Virus record (IMG/VR): IMGVR_UViG_2526164634_000013
Location: 1 to 9,208 of that record
DNA from: a virus
Lineage: Duplodnaviria > Heunggongvirae > Uroviricota > Caudoviricetes
Direction: 5' to 3' (one strand)
DNA: 9,208 nt
Shown one piece after another: positions 1,703-9,201 of the stretch (within the stretch, counting starts at the first letter, position 1; each line of letters begins with the position of its first letter). Both the position numbers and the translations under genes were made by a program. Below the pieces are notes generated by a model. It ran no database searches. It saw only the letters and a program-made list of their open reading frames with translations, and was not told where the DNA came from.

Positions 1703-1878
1703 TGCAGCGGGTGCTTGAGGCTATCTGTCTCAGGCATGAACACCAAAAGGCAGATAGAGAAAAGCCCCAGTTAACATTATGCGTCCTGCAAGACGCTTAA
1801 CATTAATCTGAGGCCCAATCTATGTCTCACAAATGTAGGTTAGCCTCTTACGTGCCGAAAGGCAAGGAGAAGCAGGCT

Positions 1879-2034
1879 ATGAAGCAGCAAAAGGCGATGT
1901 TAATCGCCCTGATCGTCATCTGTTTAACCGTCATAGTGACGGCACTGGTAACGAGGAAAGACCTCTGCGAGGTACGAATCCGAACCGGCCAGACGGAGGT
2001 CGCTGTCTTCACAGCTTACGAACCTGAGGAGTAA
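1879..2034 (+). CDS. hokD: Hok/Gef-family type I toxin (51 aa, small membrane-depolarising peptide)
   Basis: The product MKQQKAMLIALIVICLTVIVTALVTRKDLCEVRIRTGQTEVAVFTAYEPEE has the Hok/Gef hallmark: N-terminal TM helix and conserved TRKDLCEV…R…G…EVA.F.AYE. From memory it matches E. coli HokD/RelF very closely. The family call is secure; the exact paralog name is by recall only. An in-frame upstream ATG at 1822 with GAGG SD gives the 70-aa track ORF. Confidence 0.85.
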   Translation: MKQQKAMLIALIVICLTVIVTALVTRKDLCEVRIRTGQTEVAVFTAYEPEE

Positions 2035-3539: not shown

Positions 3540-3899
3540 ATGCTCATAGATTTGGTTTTACCTTACCCGCCGACGGTGAACACTTACTGGCGACGCCGTG
3601 GCAGCACATATTTTATCTCGGAGGAGGGAAAGCGTTATCGCCGTGATGTGGCGCTTATTGTTCGCCAGCAGCAACTGAAATTAAACCTGTCCGGAAGGCC
3701 GGCAATAGAAATTATTGCAGAGCCACCGGATAAGCGCCGTCGTGACCTGGACAATATCCTGAAGGCACCACTGGATGTACTGACGCATGCGGGGCTGCTC
3801 ATAGACGACGAGCAGTTTGATGAAATTAATATTGTGCGCGGTCAGCTTGTTCCTGGTGGGCGGTTGGGGATAAAAATCACAGAACTGGAGTATGCATGA
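3540..3899 (+). CDS. rusA: RusA-family Holliday junction resolvase
   Basis: 119-aa product with PPxxNxYWRRRG…RRRDLDN…DDxQ…GGRL, matching the RusA catalytic acidic-residue pattern. SD AGAGG upstream. The stop overlaps the next start (ATGA at 3896-3899). Confidence 0.88.
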   Translation: MLIDLVLPYPPTVNTYWRRRGSTYFISEEGKRYRRDVALIVRQQQLKLNLSGRPAIEIIAEPPDKRRRDLDNILKAPLDVLTHAGLLIDDEQFDEINIVRGQLVPGGRLGIKITELEYA

Positions 3900-4585
3900 A
3901 TAACCAGTATTTACAGTTTGTTCGTGAGCAACTCATGATTGCCACCGCCGATTTGAGTGGATCAACAAAAGGGCAGCTTGAGGCCTGGCAGGAGAATGCC
4001 ATGTTTGATACAGGGCGTTACAGGCGTAAAAAAATCCGGTACCGCGATGAAGTGACTGGAAAAATGATAACGCGGGATAATCCACCAATCCCGGGAAAGC
4101 AATCGCTGGCGAAGGGGGCGTCAATTCCTCTCGTCAGTCCGGTTGAGTTTTTGACATCATCGTGGCGGCGGGCTGTTCTGTCTCTTGAAGAACATCATAA
4201 AGCCTGGTTGTTGTGGTGTTACAGCGGGAGTATTTGTTGGGAATATCAGATCGCGATAACGCAGTGGGTGTGGAATGAATTTAAAACCCGGTACGGCACC
4301 AGAAAAATTGCAGGGAAAACGCAGGAGCGCGCGAAGAAGTTGATCTGGCTGGCGGCACAGGATGTCAGAGGATGGATTACCGGGTGTGAGGTCTACCAGA
4401 GACAGGAGCTTGCCAGACTGTGTGGAGTTAAGCCTGATAACTGGAGCCATAATTATGCGAACTACTGGCGTGAGATGTGCGATATTTTTAAGAGTCTCGA
4501 TAGAGAATCTGTGATTTGCACCGTGAAAATAAGAGCGCAACAAAAAGCGACTTTTTCACGACGAGATATTGCAAAAGTCAATTAA
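3896..4585 (+). CDS. Putative late-gene antiterminator Q (long Q-like family, QuuQ/YdfT-type)
   Basis: 229-aa ORF translationally coupled to rusA, with GGAG 5 nt upstream. It is the last gene before a promoter-like AT-rich stretch and a strong terminator, which is the canonical Q position in lambdoid phages. The family is inferred mainly from synteny; I cannot confirm by motif. Confidence 0.55.
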   Translation: MNNQYLQFVREQLMIATADLSGSTKGQLEAWQENAMFDTGRYRRKKIRYRDEVTGKMITRDNPPIPGKQSLAKGASIPLVSPVEFLTSSWRRAVLSLEEHHKAWLLWCYSGSICWEYQIAITQWVWNEFKTRYGTRKIAGKTQERAKKLIWLAAQDVRGWITGCEVYQRQELARLCGVKPDNWSHNYANYWREMCDIFKSLDRESVICTVKIRAQQKATFSRRDIAKVN

Positions 4586-4644
4586 ATAGCGTACGTTTCG
4601 TATAAATCTGATATTTTGCCGATTTTGTACGCGATGGCAAAGTA

Positions 4645-4675
4645 AGAAAAAAACTGCCGTCAGGCGGTTTTTTTT
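4645..4675 (+). terminator. Strong intrinsic terminator downstream of Q (tR'-like), flanked by A-run and T-run
   Basis: AGAAAAAAA, then stem CTGCC-GTCA-GGCGG (one G-U pair), then TTTTTTTT (4668-4675). It is about 60 nt downstream of a TATAAAT box (4601-4607). Confidence 0.7.
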
Positions 4676-4797
4676 ATGCCCAAAATCGCGTCAGTACAGT
4701 AAACACGCTGGTGGTTGCGAATACGGGTCTTTCAGCTTGCTGGCTTTTTCGACAAGAGTTATTGGTATGTCACGTTAACCGGAAAAAGGAAAAAGAC

Positions 4798-5145: not shown

Positions 5146-6195
5146 ATGCTTAATACTGTAAAAATATCCAGTTGTGAGTTAATCAACGCCGACTGCCTGG
5201 AATTTATCCGGTCGTTACCCGAAAATTCTGTTGACCTGATAGTCACGGACCCGCCGTACTTTAAAGTGAAGCCTGAGGGCTGGGATAACCAGTGGAAGGG
5301 CGACGATGATTACCTGAAATGGCTGGACCAGTGTCTGGCGCAGTTCTGGCGGGTGCTGAAACCTGCCGGAAGTCTTTACCTGTTCTGTGGTCATCGCCTG
5401 GCATCTGATATCGAAATCATGATGCGTGAACGCTTCAGTGTGCTGAACCATATTATCTGGGCGAAGCCGTCCGGACGCTGGAACGGGTGCAACAAGGAAA
5501 GCCTGCGGGCGTATTTCCCCGCCACAGAGCGCATTCTGTTCGCGGAACATTATCAGGGGCCGTATCGCCCGAAAGATGCCGGGTATGAGGCGAAGGGCAG
5601 GGCACTGAAACAGCATGTGATGGCCCCGCTGATTTCTTACTTTCGTGATGCGCGCGCTGCCCTGGGGATAACGGCAAAACAGATAGTGGATGCCACAGGA
5701 AAGAAAAACATGGTGTCACACTGGTTCAGTGCCAGTCAGTGGCAGCTACCGAACGAAAGCGATTATCTGAAATTACAGTCGCTGTTTGCCCGGGTGGCAG
5801 AAGAGAAACATCAGCGGGGAGAACTGGAAAAGTCCCATTACCAACTGGTCAGCACATACAGTGAGCTGAACCGGCAGTATACGGAACTGCAGAGTGAATA
5901 TAAGCATCTGCGGCGGTATTTTGGCGTGACGGCGCAGGTGCCGTACACGGATGTGTGGACGCATAAACCGGTGCAGTACTATCCAGGGAAACATCCGTGC
6001 GAAAAACCGGCAGAAATGCTGCAGCAGATAATCAGCGCAAGTAGTCGTCCTGGTGATCTGGTTGCGGATTTTTTCATGGGGTCGGGTTCAACGGTAAAAG
6101 CGGCGATGGCACTGGGGCGTCGTGCGATTGGCGTTGAACTGGAGACCGGACGTTTTGAGCAGACAGTCAGGGAAGTTCAGGATTTAATCGTTTGA
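5146..6195 (+). CDS. Orphan DNA methyltransferase, beta class (N6-adenine/N4-cytosine family, PF01555-like)
   Basis: 349-aa product with catalytic DPPY (residues 35-38) preceding the AdoMet-binding motif HPCEKP…GDLVADFFMGSGST (residues 283-316). That motif order defines the beta class, and DPPY rather than SPPY favours N6-adenine. No obvious SD before the ATG. No restriction endonuclease ORF in the window. Confidence 0.88.
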   Translation: MLNTVKISSCELINADCLEFIRSLPENSVDLIVTDPPYFKVKPEGWDNQWKGDDDYLKWLDQCLAQFWRVLKPAGSLYLFCGHRLASDIEIMMRERFSVLNHIIWAKPSGRWNGCNKESLRAYFPATERILFAEHYQGPYRPKDAGYEAKGRALKQHVMAPLISYFRDARAALGITAKQIVDATGKKNMVSHWFSASQWQLPNESDYLKLQSLFARVAEEKHQRGELEKSHYQLVSTYSELNRQYTELQSEYKHLRRYFGVTAQVPYTDVWTHKPVQYYPGKHPCEKPAEMLQQIISASSRPGDLVADFFMGSGSTVKAAMALGRRAIGVELETGRFEQTVREVQDLIV

Positions 6196-6244: not shown

Positions 6245-6320
6245 GGCCCTTTAGCTCAGTGGTGAGAGCGAGCGACTCATAATCGCCAGGTCGCTGGTTC
6301 AAATCCAGCAAGGGCCACCA
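6245..6320 (+). tRNA. ileZ: tRNA-Ile2 (anticodon CAU, lysidine type), ileZ-like
   Basis: Hand-folded cloverleaf: acceptor GGCCCTT/AAGGGCC, D-stem GCTC/GAGC, anticodon loop CTCATAA, T-loop TTCAAAT, encoded CCA. Closely resembles E. coli tRNA-Ile2 as recalled. Confidence 0.8.
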
Positions 6321-6327
6321 TCACATA

Positions 6328-6404
6328 CCGCCATTAGCTCATCAGGAAAGAGCGCCAGCCTTCGAAGCTGGCTGCGCGGAGTTCGGGTCCCCGAAGGCGG
6401 TCCA
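6328..6404 (+). tRNA. argN: tRNA-Arg (anticodon UCG as read from sequence), argN-like; atypical stems
   Basis: Perfect anticodon stem CCAGC/GCTGG with loop CTTCGAA, D-stem GCTC/GAGC, encoded CCA. However there is one A-A mismatch in the acceptor stem, one A-C mismatch in the T-stem, and the T-loop is TTCGGGT (G at position 58). Confidence 0.55.
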
Positions 6405-6417
6405 TTATCTGTATCCT

Positions 6418-6494
6418 GCGTTGTTAGCTCAGCCGGACAGAGCAATTGCCTTCTAAGTAATCGGTCACTGGTTCGAATCCAGTACAACGCGCCA
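6418..6494 (+). tRNA. argO: tRNA-Arg (anticodon UCU), argO-like
   Basis: Acceptor GCGTTGT/ACAACGC, D-stem GCTC/GAGC, anticodon stem ATTGC/GTAAT with loop CTTCTAA, T-arm ACTGG-TTCGAAT-CCAGT, encoded CCA. Confidence 0.82.
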
Positions 6495-6508
6495 CACTTA
6501 TTTTCCCT

Positions 6509-6533
6509 GGCTCGCTTTTGCGGGCCTTTTTTT
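6509..6533 (+). terminator. Intrinsic terminator immediately after the tRNA cluster
   Basis: Stem GGCTCGC / GCGGGCC (one U-G pair) with loop TTTT, followed by TTTTTTT. Confidence 0.7.
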
Positions 6534-6730
6534 AAATGTCTCACAATTCAGACGGTTGACAGTTGTCTGTTTTGCGGGGAGTTTGTTAAAAGAAACTGGC
6601 ATGGTGAATCCCCCTGTGCGGAGGGGCAATCAGCGAGTAGGTATATGGGATAATCGCGGATTCAGGTGCTGGTACTGAATTCACCGGGAGGCACCCGGCA
6701 CCATGCAATGGCACATAGCGCCACTCTCCA

Positions 6731-6755
6731 GCCCCTCTCCGGAGGGGCTTTCTTA
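6731..6755 (+). terminator. GC-rich hairpin with T-rich tail (terminator-like) in the tRNA-to-esterase interval
   Basis: Stem GCCCCTC / GAGGGGC with loop TCCG, followed by TTTCTTA. Shares the core CGGAGGGGC with a second hairpin at 6611-6626. Confidence 0.4.
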
Positions 6756-6760
6756 TGGAC

Positions 6761-6788
6761 AAAAAAATCCCGCGCTGGGAGACGCGGG
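6761..6788 (-). terminator. Minus-strand intrinsic terminator-like element (hairpin CCCGCG/CGCGGG followed on the minus strand by U7)
   Basis: On the + strand this reads AAAAAAAT, then CCCGCG, an 8-nt loop, then CGCGGG. On the minus strand that is hairpin plus T-run. It sits back-to-back with the + strand hairpin at 6731-6755. Confidence 0.35.
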
Positions 6789-6982
6789 CGGCAAGGAATA
6801 AACATCAAAACGTGAAGTAATATTTCAGCTGGCGAATAATATCCGACAGTAATCACTCTGCGCAATAGCGCGGCCTTTTTCGTATTGCGGACTGTTGTCT
6901 CTCTTCTGCCATTGTCCTGTAACTTCCGGACTTCAGCCCGCTCCTCATTTTACTCACAATATTATCCCGGCCGGGAGGATTC

Positions 6983-8836
6983 ATGGCATTTAAACACTAT
7001 GATGTTGTCAGGGCGGCGTCGCCGTCAGACCTTGCGGAAAAGCTGACACATAAACTGAAAGAGGGCTGGCAGCCGTTTGGTAGTCCGGTGGCCATAACCC
7101 CTTATACCCTGATGCAGGCGATTGCAGCAGAAGGTGATGTGGTCGTCAGTGGTGCAACTGAGCCGGAGTGGTACTACGTCATCGTACTGGCCGGGCAGTC
7201 CAATGCCATGGCTTACGGTGAAGGGCTTCCGCTTCCGGATTCATACGATGCGCCGGATCCGCGCATTAAACAGCTGGCGCGCCGCAGTACAGTGACGCCG
7301 GGTGGGGCTGCCTGCAGATATAACGATATTATTCCGGCCGACCACTGCCTGCATGATGTGCAGGATATGAGTACGCTGAATCATCCGAAGGCAGACCTGA
7401 GCAAAGGGCAGTACGGCTGTGTCGGCCAGGGCTTACATATTGCCAAAAAACTGCTTCCGTATATCCCGAATAACGCGGGGATCCTGCTGGTACCATGCTG
7501 TCGTGGTGGTTCGGCATTCACCCAGGGCGCGGAGGGGACATTCAGTGCGGACACGGGGGCCAGCCAGGATTCGGCACGCTGGGGTGTGGGTAAACCGTTA
7601 TATCAGGACCTGATTGCGCGCACTAAAGCTGCATTACAGAAGAACCCGAAAAATGTGTTGCTGGCGGTGTGCTGGATGCAGGGAGAGTTTGACATGAGCG
7701 CCGCCACCTACGCACAGCAACCTGCGCTGTTTACAGCCATGCTGAAGCAGTTTCGTGCTGACCTCACTGTGTTTAACGCGCAGTGTCATGGTGGCAGTGC
7801 TGCAGATGTGCCGTGGATTTGTGGTGACACGACGTATTACTGGAAAAATACATACGCTACCCAGTACGACACCGTGTACGGCGGGTATAAAAACAGGGAG
7901 AGTGAGGGCGTTTATTTTGTGCCCTTCATGACAGACGGTAACGGCGTCAATACCGCCACTAACGCACCGGCAGAAGATCCGGATATTCCGGCATCAGGAT
8001 ATTACGGTGCGGCATCGAGAACGAATGGAAACCAGGTATCATCAAACCGCCCGACACATTTCAGTTCATGGGCGCGCAGGAGCATTATTCCGGATCGTAT
8101 GGCAACCGCTATTCTGAACGCAGCCGGGCGCACCTCAGCCTTCATCAGTGGTAAGGCACCGGAAATCAAACCCTCGCCCGGCGTCGACACGCCATCGGGG
8201 CCGTCTGAAGATGCATCCGTACGCACAATCTCCCTGTTGCCGACAGCCGGAGAGGCTGCTGCGCAGGGCTGGACCATTAAGGACGGCGGAATTCAGTTGT
8301 CGGGTGGTGTATTTAAGATCGCCAAGCAGAGCAATAAAGCCTGGTCCCTGACGCGCCCGGTGGGTGACGCAGTCTCCCTGCTGACACGGGGTGGCAGACT
8401 GAGCTGTAAGTTTCGACTGTCAGGCGCACTGACCAACAACCAGTTCGGTCTGGGAATTTATCTGTATACCGATGTAGCGTTACCTGACGTCGTGGCGATG
8501 ACCGGGACTGGTAACCCGTTCCTGATGTCGTTCTTCACCCAGACCACAGACGGCAAACTGAATCTGATGCATCACAAGAAAGCAGGAAACACAAAGTTGG
8601 GCGAGTTCGGGAATTACAGTAACGACTGGCAGACGCTGGAGCTGGTGTTCACCGCCGGCCAGTGCCACGGTTACTCCGAAACTGAATGGAGTGGCTGGCC
8701 CGGCATTCCAGGTCATAAAGACAGTCTGACAGTGGGACTAAATGCACTGACGCTGACGGATATTACCAAAAATGCAACGTATGGCGTTGAGATAGAAAGT
8801 CTGGTGCTGGAGATAAATGCACCGGCATCATCATAA
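6983..8836 (+). CDS. nanS-p: Prophage sialate O-acetylesterase NanS-p-like (SGNH/SASA hydrolase with N-terminal DUF1737-like region)
   Basis: 617-aa product. The motif [16 protein letters not shown] carries the GQSN catalytic-serine signature of SASA-type esterases (NanS/YjhS family). The N-terminal [21 protein letters not shown]… resembles the short domain that heads prophage NanS-p proteins. GGGAGG SD at 6973-6978. Confidence 0.8.
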
Positions 8837-8921
8837 AAAGTGAGCCAGTCAAGTGGAAGGTATCGTTAAACTCACCGGTAGTGTCAGTGGGTCGTCTGAG
8901 ACGCCTGCATGAGTTATCAGA

Positions 8922-8950
8922 GCCATCAGTACTTAACTGGTGGCTTTTTT
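8922..8950 (+). terminator. Intrinsic terminator between the esterase gene and the holin gene
   Basis: Stem GCCATCAG / CTGGTGGC (one G-U pair) with 7-nt loop TACTTAA, followed by TTTTTTATT. Confidence 0.6.
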
Positions 8951-8985
8951 ATTGTTGTCAGCTTCCGGATAACGGGAGACGGGGT

Positions 8986-9201
8986 ATGTACCAGATGGAA
9001 AAAATCACAACAGGTGTGTCATACACCACGTCAGCGGTGGGAACGGGCTACTGGTTCCTGCAGTTGCTGGACAGGGTTTCCCCGTCTCAGTGGGCGGCAA
9101 TAGGCGTGCTGGGGAGTCTGCTGTTTGGGCTGCTGACATATCTGACTAACCTGTATTTCAAAATCAGAGAGGACCGTCGTAAGGCGGCGCGGGGAGAGTA
9201 A
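8986..9201 (+). CDS. S: S21-like pinholin (class II holin) with dual-start motif
   Basis: 71-aa product [71 protein letters not shown]. From memory it is near-identical over the C-terminal two thirds to the phage 21 holin (…[15 protein letters not shown]…[22 protein letters not shown]). Two TM segments and Met1/Met4 dual starts. The track ORF from 8881 is an unsupported N-terminal extension. A new ATG at 9206 starts the next gene. Confidence 0.85.

Follow-up and report, generated by a model that had tools for sequence, protein, structure and literature searches.

An EcOnc08-type small RNA transcribed against the late operon of a lambdoid prophage: a documented longer form and a predicted short form

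Does the short gap between STnc100 and the nanS-p esterase gene of a lambdoid Escherichia coli prophage encode a small RNA on the strand opposite to the late operon, and, if so, which RNA is it, where does it start and how might it act? The question arises from an earlier note, made by eye from the sequence, which proposed a leftward transcript of 65–70 nt running from a weak promoter to an intrinsic terminator within an apparently empty interval. The DNA analysed here (the window, 9,208 nt) is the late-regulatory region of such a prophage, and its principal genes are the following.

Positions 3896–4585: antiterminator Q, accompanied by DUF968 and RusA (Pfam)
Positions 5146–6195: DNA methylase (Pfam)
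Positions 6245–6494: three tRNAs
Positions 6570–6760, plus strand: STnc100 sRNA of EcOnc05/EcOnc27 type (Rfam RF02076, 139 bits, E 1.8e-31)
Positions 6983–8836: nanS-p type esterase, DUF1737/SASA/DUF6645 (Pfam)
Positions 8881–9201: P21-type holin (Pfam)

The gene order is Q, the tRNAs, STnc100 (plus strand), the leftward sRNA element (minus strand) and the nanS-p esterase, with the element lying in the 220-nt gap that separates STnc100 from nanS-p. The neighbourhood is not empty as had been supposed, since Rfam places STnc100 directly to the left of the leftward sRNA. The two RNAs are convergent, their terminators lying back to back (STnc100, 6730–6757, plus strand; leftward RNA, 6761–6788, minus strand). 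The northern probe for EcOnc05 matches the STnc100 copy of prophage Sp4 in E. coli O157 Sakai (positions 3804–3838 of our Sakai locus L004, equivalent to window 6628–6662); the window STnc100 is the same RNA as Sakai EcOnc05/EcOnc27 and is related to PasD of enteropathogenic E. coli (EPEC). The leftward element itself can be divided as follows, all on the minus strand.

Positions 6761–6788: intrinsic terminator of the leftward sRNA (scan and fold)
Positions 6790–6796: probable seed CCUUGCC, single-stranded and immediately 5' of the terminator
Positions 6797–6811: G/U-rich linker GUUUUGAUGUUUAUU, with a variation hot spot at 6805–6807
Positions 6812–6830: 5' part of the predicted short RNA, (A)GCUGAAAUAUUACUUCAC, with a possible weak hairpin UGAA...UUCA (folds)
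Positions 6836–6841 (read 6841–6836): -10 hexamer TATTAT, read from the sequence, with an 18-nt spacer to the -35
Positions 6860–6865 (read 6865–6860): -35 hexamer TTGCGC, read from the sequence
Positions 6841–6942: upstream part of the longer isoform, from the CRAC peaks EcOnc21/EcOnc42 (6841–6926) and the EPEC estimate of the 5' end (6942)
Positions 6961–6989: candidate promoter of the longer isoform, ATGCCA-17-GATAAT (scan, 9/12), overlapping the nanS-p start codon

The terminator scan and RNAfold, whose minimum free energy structure includes the hairpin, agree on the terminator, in keeping with the hairpin and seven U residues that had been recognised in the complement of 6761–6788. The stem (6788–6769, CCCGCGT CTCCCA GCGCGGG) has seven pairs, six of them G-C, enclosing a loop of six, and this G+C-rich stem-loop is directly followed on the transcribed strand by an A and U7 (6768–6761), which is the form of a Rho-independent terminator. 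It is among the best of 19 terminator-like sites found by the scan in the window (9.0 +/- 3.5 in shuffles). In 25 of 25 distinct bodies a G+C hairpin with at least six U is kept, as judged from per-sequence folds, the alternative stems being out of register in the MAFFT alignment; the stem changes include U.G to C-G, C-G to U.G and replacement of the whole stem by a different one with full compensation, ACCGCUC/GAGCGGU. EPEC RIL-seq data place the 3' terminus of the homologous sRNA at 6761, the exact end of the U-tract.

Back-to-back terminators are typical of convergent units, and the hairpin and U-tract might serve solely to keep stray antisense transcripts out of STnc100 and the tRNAs, the RNA itself being functionless. 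We regard this as very improbable: conservation extends beyond the hairpin to the CCUUGCC block and the promoter, the RNA is bound by Hfq and has RIL-seq partners with a common motif, and the module persists in other genomic contexts.

The window element is a copy of the RNA catalogued as EcOnc08/EcOnc21/EcOnc42 in O157 Sakai and as ‘E2348C_1409.E2348C_1408.IGR’ in EPEC E2348/69. The leftward small RNA is real and, since it stands in the literature as an uncharacterised candidate sRNA, it is already known. Window 6495–7074 is 98.5% identical to Sakai prophage Sp4, window 6677–7038 is 96.7% identical to Sakai prophage Sp15, and the locus is 98% identical to prophage PP6 of EPEC E2348/69. Position (between STnc100 and nanS-p), strand (antisense to the late operon) and an end at an intrinsic terminator are those of EcOnc08/21/42. 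Moreover, the 35-nt northern probe for these RNAs, AATAATATCCGACAGTAATCACTCTGCGCAATAGC, is found with no mismatch at window 6835–6869; it matches the plus strand and therefore detects a minus-strand RNA, and its site sits on top of the proposed internal promoter. The window copy differs from the published EcOnc08-type copies in a private GAUG in the linker (GUUG in the others), an A for U in the terminator loop and an A for C after the stem.

Tree et al. 2014 (PMC4104026) described convergent sRNA genes at the moron site of Sakai prophages, downstream of PR'. Their Hfq-CRAC peaks include EcOnc05 (Table S2; Sp4, plus strand), EcOnc08 (Sp4, 1179938–1180010, minus strand; 5/5 datasets), EcOnc21 (Sp4, 1180016–1180101, minus strand) and EcOnc42 (Sp15, 2924036–2924118), the last three being listed as mutual homologues with a northern band of ∼271 nt. 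The coordinates of Tree et al. 2014 and Waters et al. 2017 belong to an older version of the Sakai sequence than NC_002695.2. At our Sakai loci (L002–L004, L085 and L086) the offset is 0 (+/- 1) at Sp3 and Sp4 and +135 at Sp15, as given by probes and CLASH reads, and about +135 to +143 at Sp5 and Sp10, as implied by peaks; this shift needs correcting before the tables of either study are mapped. The EcOnc08 peak falls on window 6763–6835, where it coincides with the predicted short RNA, while EcOnc21 falls on 6841–6926 and EcOnc42 on 6844–6926, and the agreement of the latter two provides an internal check on the mapping.

Interaction data are available for the near-identical Sakai and EPEC copies. 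RNase E-CLASH (Table EV7; PMC5286369) contains nine EcOnc8-mRNA chimera lines, of which the four listed are single reads each. The EcOnc8 fragments run from UUACUUCACGUUUUGUUGU into the terminator; one, TTACTTCACGTTTTGTTGT, is joined to ECs2692 via CAAAACGTGAGGT, and another, TTTGTTGTTTATTCCTTGCCGCCCGCG...GCGCGGGCTT, to ECs1417 via AAAAACAACAAT (PMC5286369). In these chimeras pairing is through the linker at 6797–6811. In EPEC RIL-seq (Table S6B; Pearl Mizrahi et al. 2021, PMC8550237) the entry ‘E2348C_1409.E2348C_1408.IGR’ (minus strand, 1444797–1444978) is annotated by the authors ‘Homologues identified in EHEC (EcOnc08/EcOnc21/EcOnc42)’ and is scored as an Hfq-dependent sRNA that is always RNA2 in chimeras. 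Its ten partners include the 5'UTRs of cfa (767 chimeras) and dppA (197 chimeras), as well as emrA, tir, espC, pcm, the yagU intergenic region and a LEE gene, and their common motif is GGCA[A/G]GG (PMC8550237). The EPEC coordinates, an estimate of ∼182 nt from RNA-seq coverage, correspond to window 6761–6942. A 2021 review gives the target of EcOnc42 as ‘unknown’.

Taken over near-identical Sakai and EPEC copies, CRAC, CLASH and RIL-seq data bear out the leftward RNA ending at the terminator that the earlier note had proposed, and the mapped published data lie on the minus strand, as its antisense orientation to the late operon entails. Hfq binding and in vivo expression are documented for these near-identical copies by CRAC, CLASH, RIL-seq and northern blotting.

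The region immediately 5' of the terminator is strongly conserved. In an alignment of 19 distinct variants (from E. coli genomes, phage records and viral contigs), CUUGCC does not vary and UUCCUUGCC hardly does, and CCUUGCC is kept save for one position in the divergent phage phiSTEC1589. CCUUGCC is the complement of GGCAAGG, one form of the motif common to the EPEC RIL-seq partners, and nucleotides 32–43 of the window RNA pair with published target sites with predicted energies of -10 to -21 kcal/mol. CCUUGCC is probably the pairing seed. The adjoining linker contains the hot spot, at which three adjacent positions of an otherwise nearly invariant gene vary (UUUUGUUG, UUUUAUUG, UUUCAUUG); the linker UUUUGAUG occurs in the window only and is unique among 141 copies (25 distinct bodies).

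We consider it likely, with good confidence, that this is an Hfq sRNA that ends at the terminator at 6761–6788 and acts through CCUUGCC. The RNA would be a prophage-borne, Hfq-binding, base-pairing sRNA, transcribed leftward against the late operon up to this terminator, back to back with that of the rightward STnc100, and Hfq would aid pairing of the single-stranded CCUUGCC (6790–6796) and the adjoining G/U-rich linker with mRNA sites resembling GGCAAGG, for example in tir and in the leaders of cfa and dppA. An Hfq-dependent trans-acting sRNA with its seed adjoining the terminator is the most likely mechanism because the conserved seed complements the RIL-seq motif and the hairpin and U-tract are kept; terminator, strand, conservation, Hfq association and partner list come directly from the present observations or the cited data, and any regulatory outcome is inferred. 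Two isoforms with a common 3' module are probably made, namely the documented longer RNA of ∼180–270 nt, which would start near or upstream of 6942–6954, and a predicted primary transcript of 68–69 nt from TTGCGC-18-TATTAT.

The minus strand also carries open reading frames at 6853–6984 (43 aa) and 6662–6865 (67 aa), both present in a mechanical listing, and some phage records annotate a ‘hypothetical protein’ here. That the product is a small protein is scarcely credible, and this reading was rejected: the 67-aa frame starts with TTG and crosses both terminators into STnc100 antisense, an AUG arises in the short RNA solely through the private GAUG of the window, and RefSeq shows no gene under 6755–6880 among the E. 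coli genomes listed.

The start of the RNA is a separate question. Direct reading confirmed the positions of the promoter-like pair TTGCGC-18-TATTAT and also the weakness with which it had been described: it matches the consensus at 8/12 positions (3/6 and 5/6) and falls below the scan threshold. Sites of this quality number 31 on both strands of the window, so that the chance expectation is ∼0.05 per 30-nt placement window upstream of a given terminator. Taken alone, the internal promoter is weak evidence. A start 6–7 nt past the -10, which we infer to be at A6830 or G6829, would give an RNA of 68–69 nt ending at 6761/6762, the fold of the 69-nt RNA being unexceptional (z = -1.75).

Comparison with other prophages, beginning with Sp5 of Sakai, supports it. 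The Sp5 slot contains STnc100 followed by AsxR (Rfam, 88 bits) in the same arrangement as in the window, and TTGCGC, 18 bp and TAAAAT precede the 5' end of AsxR, a primary start according to the mapping of Tree et al. (PMC4104026). Homology between the window and Sp5 resumes at window 6858, and the TTGCGC of Sp5 AsxR is the homologue of the window -35. The 13 distinct promoter/body versions compared, among them AsxR, AgvB and EcOnc03 with TAAAAT, differ in the spacer, the upstream flank and the 5' body, but every one has TTGC, TA..AT and a spacing of 18 bp. AgvB and EcOnc03 have 5' ends that were mapped by experiment elsewhere, and the predicted start is equally far from nanS-p. In E. coli 14EC001 and N64 and in phages PhiR49_2 and phiSTEC1589 the EcOnc21-type upstream region is absent and the promoter-body-terminator unit is kept, in two of the four cases in a different genomic context. 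Promoter and terminator, the loss of which in related prophages had been named beforehand as the outcome that would speak against the RNA, are both conserved in divergent relatives. On these sequence comparisons, the internal promoter is evidently the positional homologue of the mapped AsxR, AgvB and EcOnc03 promoters, and we lean towards a short primary transcript of 68–69 nt being made from it.

Published accounts of EcOnc08/21/42 differ from this model in having an RNA of ∼182–271 nt, with neither an internal promoter nor a ∼68-nt form. No ∼68-nt species appears in the published experiments, in which the sole northern probe lies upstream of the predicted start and gave ∼271 nt (PMC4104026). 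The proposal of a 65–70-nt transcript thus stands in part: a leftward RNA does end at the terminator and the predicted 68–69 nt fits, but the RNAs reported in the literature exceed that size. There is certainly a longer isoform with an upstream start, given the ∼271-nt band, the ∼182 nt estimated for EPEC, and the CLASH fragments, of which some extend to window 6949–6952 and one, ATATTATTCGCCAGCTGAAA, runs across the proposed -10 and start; this last fragment means that read-through from upstream occurs. For the start of this isoform the site at 6961–6989 is the best candidate; read leftward (6989–6961), it predicts a start at ∼6954 and an RNA of ∼193 nt to the terminator, which is close to the ∼182 nt of EPEC, unlike the ∼271-nt northern band. 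By eye or by scan, no convincing sigma-70 promoter was found that would yield exactly 271 nt (a start near 7032).

The longer RNA could then be the only one, starting near or inside the 5' end of nanS-p, with TTGCGC/TATTAT non-functional here and the EcOnc08 peak representing a 3' Hfq module or a processed fragment. The ∼271-nt band obtained with a probe lying over the proposed promoter, the fragment spanning the -10, the EPEC estimate equal to window 6761–6942 and a 9/12 promoter at 6989–6961 compared with just 8/12 for the internal one are all consistent with this. However, the hexamers and their 18-bp spacing are conserved amid diverging surroundings and are retained in relatives from which the upstream region is missing; in Sp5, AsxR uses the same -35 and its reported band is 54 nt, even though the sequence upstream, with the GATAAT promoter, is 91% identical; and 6765–6825 lies outside every northern probe so far. 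An exclusively long antisense RNA is a serious alternative that we think rather unlikely, and the two-isoform model is the one that we prefer.

The RNA can be compared with a set of known prophage sRNAs. The genomic slot is the same in each case, convergent with STnc100, downstream of PR'/tRNAs or stx and upstream of nanS-p. Among 58 viral contigs, the occupant of the slot before nanS-p is AgvB (20), the EcOnc08 type (10), EcOnc03 (4) or none of these (24). Every 5' end in the slot falls no more than 4 nt from a common distance to nanS-p, the up-coordinates being 402–410 for AgvB, the EcOnc08 type and EcOnc03. The EcOnc08 type resembles AsxR (RF02703), AgvB (RF02702) and EcOnc03 in its moron slot, its orientation and its convergence with STnc100, in the TTGCGC, 18 bp, TA..AT architecture of the promoter, in Hfq binding, and in the order of its elements (a 5' part that varies, UUGCC, a G+C hairpin whose loop contains CCCA, and a U-tract). 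In contrast, its body is not recognisably homologous to theirs, their conserved 42-nt 3' block (GUAUCUCAUGC...GCCCGAACCCAYUCGGGC) is absent from it, its predicted length is 68–69 nt as opposed to 51–60 nt, and the partners found so far are mRNAs for the EcOnc08 type but GcvB or FnrS for the AsxR/AgvB family. The Rfam AsxR and AgvB covariance models gave no match in the window (E ≤ 1) or in 6740–6900 (E ≤ 10), although the same search finds the Sp5 AsxR, and membership of that family was rejected. A remote common origin of the two types of 3' module, suggested by UUGCC and the CCCA-loop hairpin, is possible.

These likenesses raise the prospect that the RNA is an anti-sRNA (sponge) like AsxR and AgvB, which would titrate or destabilise a core sRNA instead of regulating mRNAs. 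Slot, orientation and promoter are as in three known anti-sRNAs, the 5' and linker regions are variable as in AsxR, AgvB and EcOnc03, and dppA, a reporter of the GcvB/AgvB circuit, is among the RIL-seq partners. We nevertheless judge this improbable, as no sRNA is among the RIL-seq partners listed, which comprise leaders and coding regions of mRNAs and a single intergenic region, pairing of the 5' 40 nt with the two core sRNAs GcvB and Spot 42 is no better than in shuffles (p 0.06–0.45), and the AsxR and AgvB models find no match.

Several resemblances to other sRNAs were examined and set aside. The best complementarity of the 5' 40 nt to AgvB, AsxR, EcOnc03, GcvB or Spot 42 was to AsxR (p 0.028, uncorrected and for the window variant only) and was taken as chance. 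Mimicry of Spot 42, suggested by a common UUACUUCACGU, was rejected: the local-alignment p of 0.013 is for a single comparison, p is 0.13–0.15 for divergent classes, and the match is not significant because Spot 42 had been picked out of roughly 100 sRNAs. The likeness of the G/U linker to GcvB R1 (10/11 positions) was rejected at p 0.2–0.3 against composition-preserving shuffles. PasA/PasC of EPEC, homologues of EcOnc51/52, are also prophage-borne and Hfq-dependent, lie on the minus strand with respect to the late operon, flank the same esterase gene and have a seed adjoining or within the terminator; they differ in lying downstream of the esterase and in sequence. Identity with them was rejected, PasA being the EcOnc51/52 homologue downstream of the esterase and the PasA probe being absent from the window. 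Separately, GATAGAAAGTCTGGTGCTGGAGATAAATGC at 8791–8820 (plus strand), at the 3' end of nanS-p, is identical to a listed PasA RIL-seq target site in the esterase paralogue E2348C_1246; the window does not contain the PasA gene, and the position of Sakai Hfq peak EcOnc52 (minus strand) corresponds approximately to window 8823–8900.

To return to the mRNA-pairing sRNA with two isoforms, the recurrence of unrelated RNAs at one site allows a wider and more tentative proposal. Prophages may use the interval between STnc100 and nanS-p (or the holin gene) as a modular sRNA socket, in which the EcOnc08 type would be a fourth cassette, encoding a primary sRNA of ∼68 nt whose seed ties carriage of the prophage to cfa, dppA and the LEE gene tir. 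The promoter flank, with the -35 in a conserved hairpin, and the STnc100 terminator would be the recombination anchors between which prophages swap unrelated bodies, namely AsxR, AgvB, EcOnc03 and the EcOnc08 type with its sub-variants, and the 3-nt hot spot in the linker would tune target choice from strain to strain. This is an idea that we think less likely than not. Between Sp5 and the window, the 3' end and terminator of STnc100 (about 6708–6760) belong to the same swapped segment as the body of the leftward sRNA.

The 126 bases at 6755–6880 are present in 1109 of 5426 complete E. coli genomes (about a fifth), in up to six copies each, and also in Stx1 and Stx2 phages, including the Stx1 phage Sp15. 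No RefSeq annotation lies under 6755–6880 among the E. coli matches listed, and the EcOnc08 type is outside all Rfam families. A scan of species-representative genomes (596 Gb) with TTTRTTCCTTGCCRCYCG, a pattern too short for that amount of sequence, gave chance matches only, with no promoter or U-tract among the matches listed; the one enterobacterial match, in Cedecea, likewise has neither.

The EcOnc08-type RNA occupies the toxin/moron slot of lambdoid prophages. Among its published partners are cfa, dppA and emrA, which belong to the envelope and transport functions, and the virulence genes tir and espC. Through such an RNA, with its unvarying seed, the carriage of a phage could therefore be coupled to the physiology of the host and to attaching-effacing virulence. 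Our analysis maps three published datasets exactly onto one gene model, provides a candidate seed with which two independent lines, conservation and the RIL-seq motif, are consistent, and predicts from the homology to the AsxR/AgvB promoters an isoform of ∼68 nt in a slot viewed as a cassette site. The basic picture in the literature is unchanged; the sRNA call made by eye was correct and is useful for annotation, and would not surprise a specialist.

Further observations concern other parts of the window. On the plus strand a terminator-like hairpin at 6858–6880 (CTGCGCAATAGCGCGG then CCTTTTTCGT) holds, on its opposite strand, the leftward promoter's -35; Sp5 has the hairpin too, altered solely in the loop. 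The hairpin pairs better on the plus strand (U.G) than on the minus strand (C.A), and may stop read-through from STnc100 when Q is absent. Just downstream of Q, in the PR'/tR' region, 4641–4716 (minus strand) gives a sub-threshold match to STnc370 (46.7 bits, gathering score 54), and a terminator-like site lies on the plus strand at 4656–4668. Finally, a hok/sok-type toxin-antitoxin module is located at 1709–2034 (plus strand), comprising an Rfam sok match of 121 bits (1709–1884) and an open reading frame of the Hok/Gef family (1822–2034).
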